Positions 1 through 9,337 of a stretch of 64,000 nt of DNA are shown piece by piece (within the stretch, counting starts at the first letter, position 1; the number at the start of each line of letters is the position of its first letter). The stretch covers positions 128,359 through 192,358 of the forward strand of contig JAIYAU010000025.1 in NCBI GenBank assembly GCA_027488865.1, written 5' to 3'. Below the pieces are notes generated by a model. The model saw nothing but the letters and a program-made list of their open reading frames with translations, was not told where the DNA came from and searched no databases. Origin of the DNA: Cytophagaceae bacterium (GTDB lineage Bacteria; Bacteroidota; Bacteroidia; Cytophagales; UBA9547). Both the position numbers and the translations under genes were made by a program.

Positions 1-473
1 TAATTATCATAAATAATCCGAATTTGTTTTATTAGTTCCATGCCATCATAGCTGATATCATCAAGTCTGCCTATAAATGGTGAAACATAGGTAGCCCCAG
101 CTTTGGCCGCCAAAAGCGCCTGACCTGCTGAAAACACCAAAGTGCAATTGGTTCTAATTCCCCTTTCGGAGAAGTATTTAATGGCCTTTACGCCATCTTT
201 AATCATAGGTACTTTCACTACAATTTTTTCATCTATTGCCGCCAATATTTCACCTTCTTGGATCATTCCTGCAAAATCTGTGGCTATCACTTCAGCACTT
301 ACATCTCCATCTACTATGTCACAAATGTCTTTATAATGTTTTAAAACTGCGTCTTGCCCCTTAATACCCTCTTTTGCCATAAGTGAAGGATTGGTAGTAA
401 CACCATCTAAAACTCCTAAATCAAATGCTTCTTTGATTTCGGCTAAGTTTGCTGTATCGATGAAAAATTTCAT
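1..473 (-). CDS. tal: fructose-6-phosphate aldolase / type 3B transaldolase, N-terminal ~157 codons (gene runs off window start)
   Basis: Reverse complement from ATG at 473-471 reads [39 protein letters not shown]...IVVKVPM...[30 protein letters not shown], the Fsa/TalC family pattern. It is absent from the ORF track because there is no stop in the window. Confidence 0.9.
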
Positions 474-677
474 ACTATTCTTTAATTTGTTAAAATATCA
501 TTAAGTGGTGAATGTGGACCAAGCCAATTAAGTTACAATATTAAGCATACAATCAATATGAAAAAAATAAAAACGATTTTAGACTCATTCACCTTTAATG
601 GTTGATTGATTAATTGGTAACCACAATTAATATTGACCAATTTAAATTGAATTTCGTATGTTTAAAATAAAAAGAAT

Positions 678-1586
678 ATGAAAACCTATGATTTTACGGA
701 AATTGATTTTAGGATAGAGCAACTAGCTCATATTCAACCACCTTTAAACGTTCTTACTTGCACACCTGACTATTTTGAGGTAAAAGACATCAAAAACGTT
801 CACATGAAAGGCAATGTAGGTAAAGTAGAGGTTTCAAAGGCTAATAGTCAATGGAATTTCATCAAAAACATCTATCTGCAGTTAGAAACCGAAGGAAAAT
901 TGCAATCCTATCATGAACTTCCTGGATTGAAATTAGCAGAGGACATGGTATTTGCAGCAAATCCCGCAGCAGCTTGGGTTTCTAATGAAGGTGTAAAACA
1001 ACTTGTTTTGAGTAACATGGTGCATCCTTCAAGGCAACTTGAAGTACCCGCTTTTAAAGAATTCTTTTTAAATCTAGGTTACCAAATCATTGCCTTACCT
1101 TCTGATTTACATTTTGAAGGCAATGGAGATTTAATTGCCCATCCTAACAAACGACTTCTATATGGTGGTTATGGTAAACGAACGCATAAAGCTGCACATG
1201 AACATATTGCAAAAAGTTTGCAAACACCAGTTGTATTGCTGCAATTAATAGACGATAGATTTTATCATTTAGATACATGTTTCCATCCCATTGATACCGA
1301 TACTGTTTTGGTTTGTCCTGAGGCATTTAGTCTAGAAAGTTTTAATAGTATTAAGAAATTATTTAAAAATGTAATTAGAATTTCCGCGCAAGAAAATGCT
1401 TCCTTCTTTGCTTTAAACTGTAATACAATCGTAAATGGAAGTGATAAAATTTGTATAATACATTATGGTAGTACAACGGTTTACAACCATCTTATTGAAC
1501 ATGGATTCCAAATACATGAGGTAGATACATCGGAATTTATGAAGTCTGGCGGAAGTGTGTTTTGTATGAAACTGATGTACTATTAG
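678..1586 (+). CDS. amidinotransferase / DDAH / arginine-deiminase-fold (guanidino-modifying) enzyme
   Basis: 302 aa with an HLDTCF motif and a C-terminal SGGSVFCM (GGGxxC catalytic Cys region) typical of this superfamily. Confidence 0.75.
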   Translation: MKTYDFTEIDFRIEQLAHIQPPLNVLTCTPDYFEVKDIKNVHMKGNVGKVEVSKANSQWNFIKNIYLQLETEGKLQSYHELPGLKLAEDMVFAANPAAAWVSNEGVKQLVLSNMVHPSRQLEVPAFKEFFLNLGYQIIALPSDLHFEGNGDLIAHPNKRLLYGGYGKRTHKAAHEHIAKSLQTPVVLLQLIDDRFYHLDTCFHPIDTDTVLVCPEAFSLESFNSIKKLFKNVIRISAQENASFFALNCNTIVNGSDKICIIHYGSTTVYNHLIEHGFQIHEVDTSEFMKSGGSVFCMKLMYY

Positions 1587-1786
1587 AAAAAATTAAAGGG
1601 TTAATCTATTTACTAAGAAACATTATGATTAATATTTCTTTAAAAATTGGTTAAGAAAAGGAATTTAGGTTAATATTATTTTTTATTGCCAATTTAAACT
1701 AAAAATGGGCGGCATTAATTAGCTTAAATGAATTGTTGAATTTCTGTTTTTTAAAGTTTAAGCTAATTTCTTTAATTTCCATCTTG

Positions 1787-1817
1787 TTTGTTATATCAAA
1801 TCGTTAAACTAAATTTG
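1787..1817 (+). promoter_or_regulatory. Bacteroidota-type promoter TTTG-N19-TAAATTTG
   Basis: Exact match to the -33 TTTG / -7 TAnnTTTG consensus with a 19-nt spacer, 29 nt upstream of ATG 1846. Confidence 0.5.
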
Positions 1818-1845
1818 TAATGAACTGGAAATTAGACTTAACTAC

Positions 1846-2790
1846 ATGCGTTATCTAGACCCCAAAAATGATTTAACTTTTAAAAAGATATTTGGAGAAC
1901 ATCCACATCTTGCTATCAGCTTGTTAAATTCACTTTTGCCCATCAATGATGATGAACTTATCGAATCTATTGAATATTTATCTCCTCAACTAACACCCAT
2001 CATTCCTATTTTTAAAGATTCTGTTGTAGATGTGCGCTGCAAAGACAAGAAAGGGCGTCAGTTTGTGGTAGAAATGCAAATGCTTTGGACAGATGGCTTT
2101 AAACAACGAGTTCTATTTAACTCTTCTAAAGCTTATGTGCAACAAATGAAAGTAAAACAAACTTACGATTTGTTACAGCCGGTATATGCTTTAAGTTTTG
2201 TAAACGAGGTATTTGAAAAAGAAACTAGTGAATTCTATCATCACTATTCTATGGTTTGCAATCATGATACCCAACTAAAAATTGAAGGTCTTGAGCTAAT
2301 TTTTATTGAATTGCCAAAGTTTGAACCAAAAAATTTGGTAGAAAAAAGATTAAATATTCTTTGGCTTAGGTTTTTAAAAGAAATGGATGGACAAAGAGAA
2401 CTAGCAGAAATACCTGCTGATTTTGCTAATTGCCCGGAAATCAATGAAGCTTTTCATTATCTAGAAGAAAGTTCCTTTAATGAAGAAGAACTCAATTATT
2501 ACAATCGCTATTGGGATAACGTAAATAGAGAAATCACCATTAAACAAGGTGGCTTTACAGAAGGAGAAAGATATGGGCTTCAATTGGCTCAAATTGAAAT
2601 TGATGAAGCTAAAGCAAGAGAAAAAGAAGCTATTGCAAAAGAAATGGTGGCAAAAGCAAGAGAAGAAGAAGCTTTAGCAAAAGAACAGGAAGCTAAACTC
2701 CAAAACCAAAAAGCGATTGAGTTGTTACTTTCCTTGGGGATGGATAAACAAAGTATTGCTGAAAAATTAGGATTAAATCCAAATAACTAA
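1846..2790 (+). CDS. Rpn-family recombination-promoting nuclease / PD-(D/E)XK putative transposase
   Basis: The N-terminus MRYLDPKNDLTFKKIFGEHPHL...VVDVRCKD...FVVEMQ is the characteristic PDDEXK_1/Rpn signature. The C-terminal part is a coiled-coil AKAREKEAIAKE repeat. Confidence 0.85.
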   Translation: MRYLDPKNDLTFKKIFGEHPHLAISLLNSLLPINDDELIESIEYLSPQLTPIIPIFKDSVVDVRCKDKKGRQFVVEMQMLWTDGFKQRVLFNSSKAYVQQMKVKQTYDLLQPVYALSFVNEVFEKETSEFYHHYSMVCNHDTQLKIEGLELIFIELPKFEPKNLVEKRLNILWLRFLKEMDGQRELAEIPADFANCPEINEAFHYLEESSFNEEELNYYNRYWDNVNREITIKQGGFTEGERYGLQLAQIEIDEAKAREKEAIAKEMVAKAREEEALAKEQEAKLQNQKAIELLLSLGMDKQSIAEKLGLNPNN

Positions 2791-2840
2791 TTTTGCGATT
2801 TAACCTAAAGTATACACCGATCCCTACTGTGTATTAAATA

Positions 2841-3371
2841 CTAGGTCGTGTTGTAAAAGTCGAGGTTGCCTAAACTAGTACCTTGCTTGGAATACGCAAT
2901 ATTTACATTTCGTGGCAAGAGAGGCATAGTTGGTTTTATAACTACTGAGGCTCTACGTCTTCTTCTGCCCTTGCTGGGCAAAACAGGCCTCATCTGGTGT
3001 ATTTCTTGCAAAATGGCCTCCCAACTAGCATATTTTGACGTTAAGGGCAATGGCAACGGAATATGAATACCCTTTAAGAAGTATTGTGTGGCTAACAAAT
3101 GCACGTTTAACTTCTTTTTGTTTTTGGCAATGGCAGTGTATGCTGCCTTGATTTCAGGTATTAACATGGCTCGGTTGGCATAGTACACTGCATCGCGGAA
3201 CTTACCGCGGCTTTTCTGCTGCTTGGGTGTATTGGATACTGGACCTGAGTACTTTAGATAGTACACGATGTGCCCACCATGTTGCCGACGAAACACCCAG
3301 TTACCAAATGTGCCCACCACTCCTTTTAAGAATCCCGCCTTAATAAGATACCCTAATCGATCACGTTCCAT
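2841..3371 (-). CDS. hypothetical basic protein (176 aa from internal ATG)
   Basis: The track ORF 2841..3758 starts at a TTG. Its first 129 aa are F/C/W-rich and not protein-like, while protein-like sequence starts at MERDRLGYLIKAGFLKG (ATG 3371-3369). It has Lys/Arg-rich stretches (RRRRR). No family recognised. Confidence 0.35.
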   Translation of the reverse strand: MERDRLGYLIKAGFLKGVVGTFGNWVFRRQHGGHIVYYLKYSGPVSNTPKQQKSRGKFRDAVYYANRAMLIPEIKAAYTAIAKNKKKLNVHLLATQYFLKGIHIPLPLPLTSKYASWEAILQEIHQMRPVLPSKGRRRRRASVVIKPTMPLLPRNVNIAYSKQGTSLGNLDFYNTT

Positions 3372-3877
3372 ACCACAAAGATAATTTGGCACAGTGCAAC
3401 TAGCGTGCACGGTAGTAAAAAGTTTAAGGTTAGTTGAAATAAAAAGGTAACATACTCGAAGGATGCTAGGAAGATGACCGTAGGATAGGCTTAAAAGGAG
3501 GGTTTCCCCTATGGCCCCACTGGTGCGCAAGTTTACTTCGTACCCAAAACATAGAAGCAACTCTGTTCTTATACCTGCAAAAAAGTACATAAACCTCAAT
3601 CCAAAAAACATACCCCAAAATTCTTTATTCCAACAACCGCGGAAAAAGAATCCGTTGCAGTTGCTTTTAGAGCCAAGCCCAACAAATCTATTACAGTTGT
3701 TTTTAAGTACCTGAAAAAAGGAGAAAATACTCCACACCCTTTCTTTCTCTACAATCAAATCCTAAAAATCTATAGCTTGTCCAACGTCAAAACCTTCATT
3801 CCTTATAATAAACCATCCATCAACTCATCCACAACGCTTATTTCTCACACTCAAACGTTCTTTGCCTCACTTCATTT

Positions 3878-4087
3878 CTTCATTCCTCCTAACGAAATAT
3901 CCATTTCTTAATCCAAGATGTTCATTTCTCGTAACAAGATGTTCATTCCTCGTGGTGAAACTGCCATCGCGTCAGTCACTTCGTTCATTTCTTAACAAAG
4001 ATCGTTCATTTCTTTACATGAGATGCTCATTTCTTAATCCAAAACCACTATCCCGTCATTCATTTCGTTCCTTTCTTTATTCAACTC
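3878..4087 (+). repeat. degenerate 21-bp tandem/phased array, ~10 units, core GTTCATTTC
   Basis: Cores sit at 3878, 3899, 3920, 3941, (3962 weak), 3983, 4004, 4025, (4046 weak) and 4067, exactly 21 bp apart. The unit consensus by eye is GTTCATTTCTTAAnnAAGAT. Confidence 0.8.
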
Positions 4088-4230
4088 CGCTGCTGTGTCA
4101 GAATAATGGATTTTGGCTTTGAAGATTCTTGAGCGTCTTGTATTTTTACTTAATAATCTTGTCAATCACAAATACTTAACGATAGGGGTAAAATTTTTCC
4201 CACACATATTAAAACAAACAATAACAAAAT

Positions 4231-4344
4231 ATGGAAGATATTTTAAATGAAAACAATGAAAGTTTAAACTTGATGAACAAGGACTTATTTACAAAAATCT
4301 GGACTTCTCCAAGGTATCGTCTTGTATGCAAGACAATAGATTAA
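4231..4344 (+). pseudogene. 37-codon ORF, probably a 5' remnant of a larger gene
   Basis: MEDILNENNESLNLMNKDLFTKIWTSPRYRLVCKTID* looks like the cytoplasmic N-terminus of a membrane protein cut short. Its 3' end overlaps a motif repeated at other cassette junctions. Confidence 0.25.
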
Positions 4345-4481
4345 TATTTTTAAAAAAAACCTAGAAATAAAACTAATCATCTCAAAGTATAGACCGCCTT
4401 CCAGCAATGAGAGTGCATTTGTTTGTTGGTAAATTGACAGTTTAGTCCCAATTCTTAAACCTACTTACCGTTAGTAAGCTT

Positions 4482-5204
4482 ATGGCAGATACTGCTAAAA
4501 ATATAAAGGAACTTCTAGATAATGGTTTTACAACTATTGAAAGAATCTATTCGACAGGCGAAGTGGAGCAAATTTTAGCAACTATTGACCAGGTAGACCA
4601 GACTTATCCAACTTTTAGGAAATCGGTTGACCTTTTTGCTATTCGTCAATTTTTAAAAGAAGTGCCGGAAACCATAAAATATATTTTCAATGACAACTTA
4701 AAAATGGTTATTCGACATATTTTTGGTGACCACTATTTTGCCGTAAAGAGCATTTACTTTGACAAACCAGAAAATTCAAATTGGTATGTAGCTTATCATC
4801 AAGATTTGACAATTTCAGTAGACAAAAAAATTGACCTTGACGGTTTTGGACCTTGGACAGTCAAGCAAAATCAGTTTGCAGTTCAACCACCTTTAGCCAT
4901 TTTAAATAACATTTTCACCGTTCGCATTCACCTTGACGAGACAAATGAAAATAACGGTGCGTTGAAAGTTATAGCAGGATCACATTTAAAAAATATTTAC
5001 AGACCTCAAGCTATTGACTGGACGAATGAAACAGAAACGATTTGCAATGTTGGCATAGGTGGAATTATGATAATGAAACCTCTTTTATTGCATAGTTCAA
5101 GTAGGACAACCAATAACCAAAAAAGAAGAGTAATACACATTGAATTTTCGGACCAAGAACTACCAAAAGAATTACAATGGGTAGAAAGAATAAATTTTTG
5201 TTAA
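4482..5204 (+). CDS. phytanoyl-CoA dioxygenase (PhyH) family Fe(II)/2-oxoglutarate oxygenase
   Basis: 240 aa with YHQDLT (HxD), NGALKVIAGSH and a C-terminal RRVIHIEF, typical PhyH motifs. Confidence 0.8.
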   Translation: MADTAKNIKELLDNGFTTIERIYSTGEVEQILATIDQVDQTYPTFRKSVDLFAIRQFLKEVPETIKYIFNDNLKMVIRHIFGDHYFAVKSIYFDKPENSNWYVAYHQDLTISVDKKIDLDGFGPWTVKQNQFAVQPPLAILNNIFTVRIHLDETNENNGALKVIAGSHLKNIYRPQAIDWTNETETICNVGIGGIMIMKPLLLHSSSRTTNNQKRRVIHIEFSDQELPKELQWVERINFC

Positions 5205-5274
5205 AAAGCCAAATACACCAAACAATATATTAGCAAAGCGTGAGTTTCTTGTTTATCAAATTATCATATTAACC

Positions 5275-5333
5275 ATTCCTTGTAAGTACTATTTTAATTA
5301 TTTTGCGAGGCGTTTATTAGTATTTCATATACC
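5275..5333 (+). promoter_or_regulatory. dispersed leader/promoter-like repeat, copy A
   Basis: attccttgtaagtactattttaattattttgcgaggcgtttattagtatttcatatacc. It is alignable to copies B-F and ends 38 nt before ATG 5371. Confidence 0.6.
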
Positions 5334-5370
5334 AATATTAGAAGCAAGGAATTCGAGAAGTTTAACCAAA

Positions 5371-6285
5371 ATGACAGAACATCCTCACATATTGTTTTGC
5401 GAAAACCCAATCGATTTTAACAAAATTGATGAAGATTTTGAGGACCAATTCATTTCTGCAAAAGAAAACGGTTTTGAGACACTATTATTCAACTTTGAAG
5501 ATTTAACAAGTGCCAACAGGTTTTTAAGTTCAACAAAAAGAATAAAACCCAGTGACAAATTATTGAATGTAATTTATAGAGGCTGGATGTTGACACCAGA
5601 ACAGTATTCAATTTTATACAATGACCTTTTATCAAAAAACTACAAACTCATTAACACAGTTGAGGAGTATCAAAATTGTCATTATTTGCCTGAAAGCCTA
5701 AAATTCATTAGCAGCAGAACACCAAAAACAGTATTTGAAAAATTTGACAATGAAACTAGTATTGACAAGCTTCTCGAAGAATCAAAAATATTCGGACAGA
5801 AATCTGTAATTGTGAAAGATTATGTAAAGTCCGAAAAGCATGATTGGGAAACTGCCTGTTTCGTTGCTGATGCTTCAAAAATTGATAATTTCAAAAAGAC
5901 AATTAAAAAGCTTATAGAACTACGTGGCAAATATTTGAATGAAGGGATTGTAGTTAGAGAATTTATAGAACTAAACTACTTAACTATTCATTCAAAAAGC
6001 GGAATGCCTTTAACTGAAGAATATCGTTTATTTTTTTGCAATAAAAAACTTGTAGGTATTTACGACTATTGGGAAGAAGGTGAATACAAACGTAATAAAC
6101 CTGATACAACCGAATTTGAAGAAATTGCCAAACAAATTGAAAGCAATTTTTTCAGTATGGATATTGCACGACAAAAAAACGGAGAATTAATAATTATTGA
6201 ACTTGGAGACGGACAAGTTGCAGGACTTCCTGATAAAACAAACAGAAATGAATTTTATAAACAAATACGAAATTGCTGTTGTTAG
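5371..6285 (+). CDS. ATP-grasp domain protein
   Basis: 304 aa. The C-terminal part (VIVKDYVKSEK ... GIVVREFIEL ... RLFF ... ELIIIELGDGQVAGLP) matches the ATP-grasp fold nucleotide/Mg site pattern. Confidence 0.65.
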   Translation: MTEHPHILFCENPIDFNKIDEDFEDQFISAKENGFETLLFNFEDLTSANRFLSSTKRIKPSDKLLNVIYRGWMLTPEQYSILYNDLLSKNYKLINTVEEYQNCHYLPESLKFISSRTPKTVFEKFDNETSIDKLLEESKIFGQKSVIVKDYVKSEKHDWETACFVADASKIDNFKKTIKKLIELRGKYLNEGIVVREFIELNYLTIHSKSGMPLTEEYRLFFCNKKLVGIYDYWEEGEYKRNKPDTTEFEEIAKQIESNFFSMDIARQKNGELIIIELGDGQVAGLPDKTNRNEFYKQIRNCCC

Positions 6286-6395
6286 CTCCCAAGCTTAATA
6301 AGACACTTAAAATTATTTAATATTGAATCTTTAACCAGTTGCGTTTATATCGTCTATTGGCGTGTTAGGTTCAACTGTTTGACACGACACAGACA

Positions 6396-6932
6396 ATGAA
6401 AAAAGAAAATCTTTACAAGGAAATATCGGACGCAGTTCAAATTCTTTTAAAAATGGCTTGTGAATTTTCTTTCAATAATATTTCGGACAATTGTAAGTTT
6501 ATCATTTCGGAAATTAAACATAGCGACAAAAACTTCTTTGAGCAAAACAAAATTCGCAAAATAGACAATGACAAAAAGATACCAAAACCTCTTACTGACA
6601 CCATTGTTGAACTAGAGACGATGTACGCAAATCTTTATGACGTAAATTTATATGTTTATAAAGCAGATAGCCATTCAACTATTATTGAAATACAATATTT
6701 CCCACGTTCATCACACGACTTAGAATATCAAAAAATATCTGCAACTCAAGAGACAATGCTTCATTGCAAAGTAGCTGTTCCAGCTTATGCATCTGACAAC
6801 AAAGAAAAGTTTGACATTAACTGGCAACTCGGGACTTTAAATCATAAATGGAAAATGTTTTGGTGGCAACGGAAGACAAAAAACATCTTGAATGTTGTGG
6901 AGTTAAATTATAGACAGACACTTATGCAATAG
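6396..6932 (+). CDS. hypothetical protein (178 aa)
   Basis: Clean ATG ORF with protein-like composition. No family recognised. Confidence 0.55.
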   Translation: MKKENLYKEISDAVQILLKMACEFSFNNISDNCKFIISEIKHSDKNFFEQNKIRKIDNDKKIPKPLTDTIVELETMYANLYDVNLYVYKADSHSTIIEIQYFPRSSHDLEYQKISATQETMLHCKVAVPAYASDNKEKFDINWQLGTLNHKWKMFWWQRKTKNILNVVELNYRQTLMQ

Positions 6933-7098
6933 AAAAATCGACAACAATGAAAATACTTTAGCGACAGACCTAAGCGAAACAAAACGTGACGAGCAGAATG
7001 GAAAATACAGCAGCACCTAACAACTAAGGTTTCGTCTTGTTTGCAAAACAAGAGATGAAACCCTATGATACTTTAACTTTACCATCAACTAAAAAATA

Positions 7099-7186
7099 TT
7101 TATAGACTTTTTATTTACTCATTTTAACCCTTCCTTACTAATCCTTTTTTAACTATTTTGCGAGTAGTTTTTTAGTAATTACAGAC
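7099..7186 (+). promoter_or_regulatory. dispersed leader/promoter-like repeat, copy B (extended form)
   Basis: ttatagactttttatttactcattttaacccttccttactaatccttttttaactattttgcgagtagttttttagtaattacagac. It ends 20 nt before ATG 7207. Confidence 0.6.
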
Positions 7187-7206
7187 TGCAATTGTTAAAA
7201 TTTAGA

Positions 7207-7803
7207 ATGAAAAAATCAGCTATTTACTTCGGATTAATTTTACTGATTACTAGTTGTAATTCTAGAAAAACAGCGTTAATAGTTGATGAAGTCAAATCTT
7301 TTAAAACAAATGTCAAATACTTCACTCCCGATAAATTTGAATTGGAAAAAATTCCTTATCCAAAAATAGATTCACTATTATTTCTATCCCACTTTTCATC
7401 AATTCCAGAACTAACAGAATATTCTGACCACACTTCGTCTGTCTATGTTTATTCCAAGAACAAATTTTCAAATGGAATTATTGGTATAACCTTCATGGCT
7501 CAAGACGATATGTTTACTAAAAAATATATCATGGTTTTGCTTAATAAAGATTATAAAATAGTAGATGCTTATTTAATAGCCTATTCAAATATGGACGAAG
7601 AGTGGTACGAAGTAACTGAAACCAGAATTACAAATGAAAATTTATTTAAAACAAACAAAGTTTCCTGTGAAATATTGTCGCATGTGGATACGATTAATTA
7701 TTGTAAATGTGATTCATCTAATATTTTGTTGAAACTGGAACCAAAGGGAGCATTAGTAAATTTTAAAGAAGATAAATATCAATATACAAGGGTTAATAAA
7801 TAA
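7207..7803 (+). CDS. hypothetical lipoprotein
   Basis: MKKSAIYFGLILLITSCNS is a signal peptide plus lipobox Cys. The track start at 7192 is a TTG extension. Confidence 0.65.
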   Translation: MKKSAIYFGLILLITSCNSRKTALIVDEVKSFKTNVKYFTPDKFELEKIPYPKIDSLLFLSHFSSIPELTEYSDHTSSVYVYSKNKFSNGIIGITFMAQDDMFTKKYIMVLLNKDYKIVDAYLIAYSNMDEEWYEVTETRITNENLFKTNKVSCEILSHVDTINYCKCDSSNILLKLEPKGALVNFKEDKYQYTRVNK

Positions 7804-7899
7804 AAAAGTTAAACTAAACATCCGTGTTTCGAAATGAAGGATGTTGGGGCACAAGCCTAACGAAAAAATCATATTAATCACAATGTTAAGGATTTAACA

Positions 7900-8445
7900 A
7901 TGGAAATAGGACAAAAATTTAATCAGTTGACTTTTGAGGAGTATTTCTACTATGTTGACAACTACAAAAAATATACAGACTTCAACACCCTTGGACTATA
8001 TCGTTCAATTGTGGAGAATGTAAAATTAAGTTTGAAAGAAAAAATTGATGTAAGGGAATATTGTCACCTAACGTTTAAAAAAACGTTCGACTTTTTACAG
8101 CTAAAAGATCCCAAGGTGTTTTTTGAGATTTCAACTTTGGGTCAAGAGCTTACCAATGGTGACATAGTCAAGATATGGGACGACATCAAAATTAATCAGC
8201 AAAAAATATTAAAAGACAAGAAAATTAGGCATAGAAATTTTGGGATATATTCAAAACACAATTGCGGTTATGAGAATTGTGTTTGGAACGGACTAATGAT
8301 TAAGCAAGGTTCTTGGTTAGCTGATGGAAATATGCATTTCACAGACGACAAAAATAAATACCAACAGAAACTAAATTCAGAAGGTAGAAAATCAGACAGG
8401 AAGAAGGAAAGACAAATAATAAGCAGAGAACTTGATAATAATTAA
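7900..8445 (+). CDS. hypothetical protein (181 aa)
   Basis: ATG ORF with a basic C-terminal tail. No family recognised. Confidence 0.5.
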   Translation: MEIGQKFNQLTFEEYFYYVDNYKKYTDFNTLGLYRSIVENVKLSLKEKIDVREYCHLTFKKTFDFLQLKDPKVFFEISTLGQELTNGDIVKIWDDIKINQQKILKDKKIRHRNFGIYSKHNCGYENCVWNGLMIKQGSWLADGNMHFTDDKNKYQQKLNSEGRKSDRKKERQIISRELDNN

Positions 8446-8660
8446 AGGTAGTCGAGTGGTTCAATCTTTATACCTCCGTGGCCGGTTGTATATAAGACAT
8501 TAATGTTTCGGATTGTATGCCAAATGTTATTTAGACTGAAGAGATAGCCAAACACATTGCTAAAACACCTTAGTTTATAGAGATAAAACAAGAAATTACT
8601 CATATAGTAAATACTTTACCAGATGAAGTTTTGGGACTTGCAAGAAGTTTTAGAAATTCA

Positions 8661-8748
8661 TTATAGACTTCTTCAACTATAATTTTTCCCTTCCTCGCTA
8701 AAACTATTTTAACTATTTTGCATAAGGTTTATTAGTTTTTTTACAAAC
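8661..8748 (+). promoter_or_regulatory. dispersed leader/promoter-like repeat, copy C (extended form)
   Basis: ttatagacttcttcaactataatttttcccttcctcgctaaaactattttaactattttgcataaggtttattagtttttttacaaac. It ends 19 nt before ATG 8768. Confidence 0.6.
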
Positions 8749-8767
8749 CCCCAACACCAACCAATAA

Positions 8768-9337
8768 ATGATAGACATTTTACGCAATCATATAACGAGC
8801 AGACTTGGAAATGATCTTGACAATTTGGACAAAGTGATTTCAACTTTTAAACACATTTCAACCAAACGCAACGAGCAACTTTTACAACAAGGCGAAACTT
8901 GCAAATATGTTTACTTCGTTGCCAAAGGTTGTTTACAGGTCTACGTGTATGACCAAGATTTTAACGAAACTACCAGAGACATCGTGATTGAAGACAATTG
9001 GTGTTCAGAACTCTTGAGTTTTGGAAGTGGCAACCCAGCAACAGAAAATATCAGGGCTGTAGAGCCTTGTGAGCTATTTGCCATCGACAGACAATCATTT
9101 CAAACCATGATGGAAACGGTTCCACAGTTTGACAAAGTGTATAAACAAATCCTTGAAGCCTCTTACGCCAATTCTGTTTATCGTATCAACACATTTGTTT
9201 CATTAACAGCACTTGATAGAATAAAATGGTTGATGGAATACCGCCCTACCTTAATGAACAGACTTTCTAGCAAACTCATCGCTTCTTATTTGGGCATCAA
9301 CAAAGATGTTTTTAGTAGATTAAAAGCCAAATTGTAA
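8768..9337 (+). CDS. Crp/Fnr family transcriptional regulator
   Basis: 189 aa. A cNMP-binding beta-roll pattern (LLQQGETCKYVYFVAKGCLQVY) is followed by a C-terminal HTH (IASYLGINKDVFSRLK). Confidence 0.85.
   Translation: MIDILRNHITSRLGNDLDNLDKVISTFKHISTKRNEQLLQQGETCKYVYFVAKGCLQVYVYDQDFNETTRDIVIEDNWCSELLSFGSGNPATENIRAVEPCELFAIDRQSFQTMMETVPQFDKVYKQILEASYANSVYRINTFVSLTALDRIKWLMEYRPTLMNRLSSKLIASYLGINKDVFSRLKAKL

Follow-up and report, generated by a model that had tools for sequence, protein, structure and literature searches.

A degenerate 21-bp tandem array in a Cytophagaceae bacterium, probably a helix-phased non-coding minisatellite built by block duplication

Is a run of direct repeats spaced exactly two helical turns apart a set of protein-binding sites, a gene, or the product of tandem amplification? 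The question is raised by a 21-bp array in a 64,000-nucleotide stretch of DNA from a Cytophagaceae bacterium (assembly GCA_027488865.1, contig JAIYAU010000025.1, positions 128,359 to 192,358 of the forward strand). This stretch is referred to here as the window, and coordinates are window positions unless a contig handle such as C28 precedes them. An initial annotation had placed ten phased cores at 3878-4087 and had proposed that they were protein-binding sites, either the iterons of a decayed mobile or replicative element, LytTR-type sites, or the arm sites of a recombinase. We found instead that the array is no one-off: it is one of several unrelated arrays in this genome, including at least five long non-coding 21-bp arrays, that step by about two helical turns. 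The explanation that we favor, with a probability of roughly 0.55, is that it is a helix-phased non-coding minisatellite built by block duplication, with the period, and not the sequence, being constrained at the DNA level.

The array, its core and its higher-order blocks

The array, the tract that encloses it and the inverted pair around both are as follows.

3794 to 4087, plus strand: degenerate 21-bp tandem array of 14 units, consensus GTTCATTTCTTAATACAAAAC, with core positions 2-11 conserved
3794-3877, 3878-3961, 3962-4045 and 4046-4087, plus strand: 84-bp (four-unit) higher-order blocks of the array, from repeat analysis
3575 to 4087, plus strand: G-poor, C-rich tract enclosing the array, from composition
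3615 to 3635, no strand assigned: left arm of an imperfect 21-nt inverted pair (17/21 complementary), the two arms of which stand on either side of the G-poor tract with its array
4096 to 4116, no strand assigned: right arm of the inverted pair, beginning 9 bp past the last array unit

When the sequence was re-read, the phased array at 3878-4087 was present with its cores and its two degenerate units. The ten positions from 3878 onward stand, but the register really begins at 3794 (CTTCATTCC), giving 14 units, all in one orientation and at steps of exactly 21 bp; the proposed same-orientation phasing at two helical turns was thus upheld. The exact core, GTTCATTTC, is found at 3920, 3983 and 4004, and cores with one mismatch lie in register at 3941, 4025 and 4067 and out of register at 3870 and 4058. 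The unit at 3878 carries CTTCATTCC and the one at 3899 a weaker ATCCATTTC, and in the degenerate units at 3962 and 4046 the core is almost gone. Tandem Repeats Finder (TRF) reported the array as period 21 in three overlapping rows, and autocorrelation over 3836-4087 gave a lag-21 identity of 0.51 (z = 7.5 relative to shuffled sequences).

The strongest signal in the same autocorrelation was obtained at lag 84 (identity 0.565, z = 8.4 relative to shuffles). Units four apart are 59% identical as compared to 48% for neighboring units, and identity among the 84-bp blocks is 54-69%. As units at four-unit spacing are closer to one another than neighbors are, and as the blocks are alike, we conclude that the array grew through duplication of four-unit blocks. 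The earlier statement that this was not a recent slippage repeat is for this reason just half right. There was no heptamer sub-period in the array (lag-7 identity 0.27, z = -0.6), and a heptamer repeat resembling the short tandemly repeated repetitive (STRR) sequences was rejected on failing this 7-nt period test.

Within the unit, the core xTTCATTTCT is kept while the 11-nt spacer is loose. Mismatches are distributed unevenly across the 21 columns (heterogeneity p = 0.003), and the conserved columns form a single contiguous block at positions 2-11 (TTCATTTCTT, p = 0.01), in agreement with the conserved cores and drifting spacers that had been described. Core matches with no more than one mismatch number 8 inside 200 bp of the array and 1653 in the whole genome (both strands of 4.33 Mb, or 8.65 Mb), and no second cluster of at least five such matches was found on either strand of the genome.

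The plus strand had been noted as G-poor at about 3760-4100. This was borne out over a wider tract (3575-4087), in which G amounts to 9.4% and C to 27.1%, as opposed to window means of 16.4% and 17.4%, respectively. The part of the tract at 3575-3793 is unique, non-repetitive spacer, with no other genomic copy found. Both arms of the inverted pair are single-copy in the genome, and the pair could be a chance match, as we estimate that about 0.4 such pairs are expected per 1.4 kb of like composition. The contig on which the array lies is chromosomal and measures 401 kb. The only other assembly retrieved, an independent Logan assembly of run SRR30952584, agrees with the window at 100% identity over 3462-6496, and therefore the array is not an assembly artifact.

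One open reading frame (ORF) runs through most of the array.

3862 to 4122, plus strand: 86-aa ORF made of RCSFLxx heptads, not a gene but a reading-frame by-product of the G-poor 21-bp repeat

The initial annotation had allowed that this ORF could be a real heptad-repeat protein. It had no match in Pfam or NCBIfam and zero homologues among 5.8 billion proteins, and an open frame is to be expected because the plus strand is almost without G. The remaining reading frames of the array, including the minus-strand EMN frame, are interrupted by stops. With all six frames examined, and with the 86-aa ORF lacking both family and homologue, a heptad-repeat protein gene was rejected. An Rfam scan of window 1-9000 yielded nothing relevant, and RNA folding of the array on either strand was no better than that of shuffled sequences (z = -0.77 and +1.11). 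The array is non-coding.

Other 21-bp arrays and the period census

Whole-genome TRF analysis revealed an excess of period-21 rows, which are of three kinds: heptamer-based arrays, A-rich coding repeats, and true 21-mers without a sub-period. In addition to the array at 3794-4087, the last kind comprises the following.

C1:1434-1795: true 21-mer array of 18 units
C28:22105-22336: true 21-mer array
C28:63969-64180: true 21-mer array
C40:152762-152888: true 21-mer array
C42:645-965: true 21-mer array of 16 units

All six arrays are intergenic, and of the five listed here, four are flanked by convergent genes. Lag-7 identity is 0.19-0.33 in the array at 3794-4087 and in four other primary 21-bp arrays. 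A strict census admitted primary non-coding arrays of at least 8 copies whose lag identity reached 50% or more and which lacked both a sub-period and a long open frame. It gave the following numbers.

Period 20 bp: 2 arrays
Period 21 bp: 5 arrays
Period 22 bp: 2 arrays
Period 41 bp: 1 array, in the window at about 12.2-12.6 kb
Period 42 bp: 1 array
Each other period from 16 to 45 bp: 0 or 1 array

Further loci of the census cluster are C58:4930, C58:111453 and C58:47474. The arrays at C1 and C40 are the sole pair to share a unit (GACTCTCTGACACTCGTGAAA, 18/21), and they also share a short left-flank word (GTTTATACTC). The array at 3794-4087 and that at C42 have the 8-mer TTCATTTC in common, and their whole units agree at 12/21 positions (p = 0.11).

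A comparable array is found in G264, a genome from a different Cytophagales family, where at least 10 near-perfect 21-bp units of CTTCATTTCCGTGGTTTGTGT, which break that assembly, are situated upstream of a split GH65 phosphorylase gene at a distance of about 150-170 bp (locus L032 3909-4149, equivalent to G264:C116:12908-13148, and G264:C628:2287-2399). This resemblance could be due to chance, because the search was made for that core. A unit common to the 3794-4087 array and either the C42 or the G264 array was rejected, the 8-nt core being shared with whole-unit p values of 0.11 and 0.48, respectively. Duplication of the array together with its upstream gene from the C42 locus was rejected as well, with no protein similarity and a short flank match (p about 0.01, uncorrected). 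When three occurrences of TCATTTC in 21-bp phase were searched for globally, at least 120 loci from many phyla were retrieved, and the pattern is therefore not diagnostic.

A separate set of 21-bp arrays occurs in many phyla (L048, L049, L063, L102, L111, L126, L128, L132 and others), with a conserved core TGTCATTTCGAC and a 9-nt variable tail. These arrays end in a near-palindrome (GTCATTTCGACC..GGGAGAAATC), and L102 has an inverted partner downstream. Their appearance is that of a widespread hairpin element of which one arm has been multiplied in tandem.

Across the arrays of this genome, the period appears to be the constrained property and the sequence does not. Neither coding nor RNA structure can explain an exact 21-bp step in unrelated sequences, and for this reason we take the period to reflect a constraint at the DNA level. 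We infer that slipped-strand mispairing or unequal recombination would have multiplied a 21-bp unit head to tail, and later 84-bp blocks of four units as well, and that the units would since have decayed to about 50% identity. The two-turn step would set the conserved cores on a single face of the helix. The period itself might be caused by intrinsic bending, or by an architectural or loosely specific DNA-binding protein that docks cooperatively along one face; either would account for the 9-10 nt core being kept while the spacer drifts. Within this explanation, docking or bending is the part of which we are less sure.

Several points weigh against a constrained period. The core has no further phased occurrences in the genome, two of the 14 units are almost without a core, and an old, degenerate array also fits decay without selection. 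The column heterogeneity could stem partly from the history of the higher-order blocks rather than from constraint. The census covers 13 arrays from a single genome, and the comparison with other organisms reaches family-level relatives only, which are about 50% identical in the flanking proteins.

Conservation of the locus was assessed partly with the help of the next gene downstream.

4482 to 5204, plus strand: PhyH-type dioxygenase gene (PF05721), the next plus-strand gene downstream of the array

Window 3600-4480 had a match in 0 of 40 relatives, the array sequence had none in 400 order-level genomes, and its unique flank word had none in metagenome contigs. Synteny comparison was uninformative because, within the family, identity of the flanking DDAH-like protein does not exceed 54%. 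At 80 metagenomic loci carrying PhyH homologues (up to 79% aa identity), there was no array and no DNA similarity to 1600-4481. Judging by these sequence searches, the array is lineage-specific.

A lineage-specific and decayed array might also be neutral junk, that is, a tandem duplication that arose locally long ago, serves no function and was not selected for its period, and whose core and 21-bp bias are by-products of the block history and of a repeat vocabulary of 7 and 11 nt (3 x 7 and 2 x 11). The unit identity of about 50%, with units 3962 and 4046 nearly unrecognizable, is what such decay would leave. Moreover, 7- and 11-nt arrays are abundant in this genome, with the word GAAATGA among them. 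The uniqueness of the array sequence (in the 40 relatives, the 400 order-level genomes, plasmids and phages) and the lack of an array at the PhyH homologue loci point in the same direction. However, a 7-nt sub-period is found neither in the array nor in four other primary 21-bp arrays, the conserved columns are contiguous, and slippage alone cannot explain why periods of 23-40 are avoided while arrays pile up at 20-22 and 41-42. We therefore regard neutral junk as rather unlikely, though worth serious consideration.

The composition of the tract suggests another possibility. Rho-loading (rut) sites are unstructured, C-rich and G-poor stretches of RNA with regularly spaced YC words, and the tract could be a transcribed, rut-like spacer of 513 nt that terminates or insulates transcription from the Rpn side before the PhyH promoter. 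Over 3575-4087, C amounts to 27-29% and G to 8.5-9.4% (C/G about 3), a stable RNA fold is not predicted, a search of 3210-4600 gave no intrinsic terminator, and four other arrays sit between convergent gene ends. Yet the G264, C28b and C1 arrays are not strongly G-poor, the skewed arrays of the genome follow no clear strand rule (11 vs 5 in tandem gene pairs), and the exact 21-bp period is left unexplained. A rut-like spacer is thus unlikely, and clearly so.

If the period is indeed constrained, the sequence-unrelated arrays locked to about 21 (and 42) bp might represent an undescribed class of cis-element in Cytophagales and other Bacteroidota in which helical phase is selected. This broader proposal is tentative, and we would give it less than even odds. 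The arrays of such a class might provide a platform on which an architectural DNA-binding protein docks or bends the DNA, or a length-measuring amplification might fix the unit at two turns; the array at 3794-4087 would be an ageing member, with its core still on one helix face. A limited literature search found no description of a period lock of this kind. The main interest of the locus lies here, in that the long primary non-coding arrays of this genome occur almost solely at two or four helical turns while their sequences are unrelated. If this holds true across Bacteroidota, it would amount to a DNA-shape or protein-docking rule for the formation or retention of repeats.

Neighboring mobile DNA and the binding-site proposals

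The DNA on both sides of the array contains the following additional features.

1846 to 2790, plus strand: gene for an Rpn-family PD-(D/E)XK nuclease or putative transposase (PF12784, 9.5e-38; TIGR01784, 1.2e-19)
2841 to 3371, minus strand: ORF176, the gene of a ~680-bp multicopy element, with a conserved N-terminal domain and a variable basic tail
3372 to 3495, minus strand: 5' leader of ORF176, ~117 bp conserved, with a promoter-like TTG...TAtcTTTG box right before the ATG and a GTGCA..TGCAC dyad
3516 to 3611, plus strand: multicopy repeat resembling repetitive extragenic palindromic (REP) sequences, hairpin core GGTGCGCAAGTTTACTTCGTACC, about 25 or more genomic copies
4353 to 4427, plus strand: dispersed short repeat module, present also on contigs C21 and C4 and situated here upstream of the PhyH gene

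The initial annotation was right about the Rpn-family nuclease. Its "orphan basic ORF" at 2841-3371, on the other hand, really belongs to a ~680-bp element that is present about 22 times in this genome. Window 2823-3508 recurs as a repeat, of which more than 20 copies were located, many of them at contig ends; tblastn detected 23 pieces of ORF176 in this genome and a family profile 22 copies. Alignment of 10 full copies showed that the element (window ~2823-3495, minus strand) consists of the ~117-bp leader, the 176-codon ORF and about 25 bp past the stop codon, beyond which the flanks diverge. In this alignment the promoter-like box of the leader is of the Bacteroidota type and abuts the ATG, and the GTGCA..TGCAC dyad is also present upstream of a full-length ORF176 paralogue. 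Examples of other copies are C61:7157-7830, C5:22893-23576, C5:283824-284496 and C36:206377-207075. Many copies break the assembly, and no terminal inverted repeats of the element were seen.

The ORF176 protein family has 295 distant relatives in a library of 1.8 billion proteins and no match in Pfam or PHROG. A check for a Rep-like fold came back empty: of two AlphaFold models, the better with a predicted local distance difference test (pLDDT) score of 78, neither had a match in PDB or BFVD. The family is sporadic in relatives (5/61 genomes, with 1-3 copies each), whose members are about 187 aa long and carry a C-terminal beta-rich domain, and this genome has two full-length genes of the family plus about 20 truncated, basic-tailed derivatives. 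What had been called an orphan can thus be re-labelled as a proliferating single-gene element without a fold match.

The REP-like hairpin repeat (GGTACGGAAGTGAACTTCCGCACC type) has at least 25 copies, some in tandem and some inverted on both sides of the ORF176 element, and such inverted copies flank the element at two other loci (copies include C5:22705-22772, C61:7946-7997 and C28:84826-87071). ORF176 and the REP-like hairpin were probably inserted between the Rpn gene and the array as separate mobile DNA; no empty site was seen. As these left neighbors of the array are multicopy, they are mobile DNA and not its partner. No 21-bp array was found beside other ORF176 copies, which diverge right past the ~117-bp leader, and short heptamer runs occur near some copies only. 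A systematic link between the array and ORF176 was accordingly rejected, and the array is functionally tied to neither the Rpn gene nor ORF176.

Three further observations were made on these families. First, the genome has only two Rpn (PF12784) paralogues, at 1846-2790 and C36:205676-206248, and for both of them the distance to the 3' end of an ORF176 copy is no more than about 130 bp. For an element with 22 copies in a genome of 4.3 Mb, such adjacency is unlikely to arise by chance, and it could point to a preferred target or to a functional connection. Second, another REP family (GCACCGACGGACGTCGGCGC) is situated beside the C40 21-bp array together with a RAYT-like gene with a HIHLL motif (C40:153168-153557). 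Third, the full-length ORF176 paralogue at C55:33466-34026 is accompanied by a heptamer-type array (CAATTTA / CAATTAA words) at C55:34042-34106, which sits between a conserved promoter-like dyad (GTGCACACTGGTTGCAC) and the start codon, that is, in the presumed 5' untranslated region.

The mobile DNA that adjoins the array (the Rpn gene, the ORF176 element and the REP-like repeat) bears out one part of the initial suggestion of a decayed mobile or replicative element. The replicative part does not stand. That proposal supposes that the phased cores belong to an integrated plasmid or integrative and conjugative element (ICE), since decayed, and were at one time the binding sites of a Rep, ParR-type or integrase protein, and the geometry of same-orientation 21-bp repeats with a conserved core would suit it. 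Theta-plasmid iterons are likewise one-orientation direct repeats of 17-22 bp, with spacing of about two turns and conserved cores, as exemplified by the seven 22-bp repeats of the R6K gamma origin. Iterons, however, adjoin their own rep gene, an AT-rich unwinding element, and DnaA or integration host factor (IHF) sites on a replicon, and nothing of this context accompanies the array. In the ~12 kb around the array, the gene content is limited to tal, a DDAH-like enzyme, Rpn, ORF176, PhyH, an ATP-grasp enzyme, two cNMP-binding proteins and small unknowns. Rep, Par, Mob and integrase genes are absent from this surrounding stretch as well as from window 1-16 kb, and ORF176 is a 22-copy gene without a Rep-like family or fold. 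Neither a GC-skew turn nor a DnaA-box cluster was found near 132 kb of contig C36, and the array and the ORF176 family showed no similarity to 72,556 plasmid and 50,697 phage records. Furthermore, unrelated 21-bp arrays at four or more other chromosomal sites are likewise without such genes, and an array of 14 decayed units in a chromosomal contig of 401 kb is at odds with iterons.

Iterons, centromere-like repeats or arm sites of a decayed integrated plasmid or ICE are thus largely refuted by the missing replicon and recombinase context, and this is the least probable of all the readings considered here. As to arm-type sites in particular, the genome has just two tyrosine recombinases, both on other contigs, and there is no tRNA in the window; with no integrase gene or tRNA attachment-site context beside the repeats, this candidate was rejected. 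The array does not represent an origin of replication, be it of a plasmid or of a mobile element, and the idea of a hidden one can be dropped. Taken alone, it is an ordinary decayed minisatellite of modest interest.

The other binding-site proposal sees in the array the operators of a LytTR-type or other direct-repeat-binding factor that controls the downstream PhyH and ATP-grasp genes. LytTR sites (AgrA, ComE-type) have a 9-nt core and a 12-nt spacer, usually in two or three repeats at a regulated promoter; as a rule, the gene of the regulator is linked and the motif serves again in other members of a regulon. The core of 9-10 nt and spacer of 11-12 nt in the array match this geometry, GTTCAT occurs within the core, PhyH lies about 400 bp downstream on the same strand, and the genome encodes 8 LytTR regulators. 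However, the nearest of these genes is 160 kb away, 14 sites are far above the usual two or three, and the PhyH homologue loci elsewhere have no such array. A search for the motif at 21-bp phasing elsewhere in the genome counted 12 core pairs outside arrays against a background of about 11, showing no enrichment. With no linked regulator gene and no reuse of phased core pairs, the LytTR operator was rejected as very unlikely.

Comparison with known repeats

Intergenic heptamer repeats include TAACTGA (MacGregor 2015, PMC4679880), GGGNATC (Rehm et al. 2015, PMC4692102) and the cyanobacterial STRR sequences. Such repeats are strand-asymmetric as well as intergenic, occur in abundance in Bacteroidota and cyanobacteria, and are known from cyanobacteria, Beggiatoaceae and Bacteroidetes (PMC4679880, PMC4692102). 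Heptamer repeats are also present in this genome, and the word GAAATGA is common to them and to the array. Unlike them, the array has a genuine 21-nt unit, composed of core and spacer, and is without a 7-nt sub-period.

A closer parallel in overall form is BrickBuilt of Porphyromonas gingivalis, an intergenic minisatellite of the MITE type (miniature transposable elements with inverted repeats) with a 23-nt unit, no spacers, and a leader and a tail with small inverted-repeat ends (Klein et al. 2015, PMC4596501). Like BrickBuilt, the array is an intergenic minisatellite of a member of the Bacteroidota, with a unit of about two turns, and an inverted pair brackets its tract. BrickBuilt, however, is a dispersed family, with 19 copies of one unit, leader and tail (PMC4596501), whereas the 21-bp unit, the flanks and the inverted arms of the array are all single-copy. 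As the bracketing arms are unique in the genome, a BrickBuilt-type MITE was rejected.

By its structure the array is a minisatellite. It resembles bacterial minisatellites, or variable-number tandem repeats (VNTRs), in its head-to-tail units in the 10-100 bp range, its non-coding nature, its presumed origin by slippage or unequal recombination, its higher-order blocks, which are frequent among them, and its lineage specificity. Copy-number variation between strains, by whole units, is the defining behavior of VNTRs. VNTRs have no preferred unit length, and it is in this respect that the array differs from them, as the unrelated arrays of its genome gather at 20-22 and 41-42 bp.

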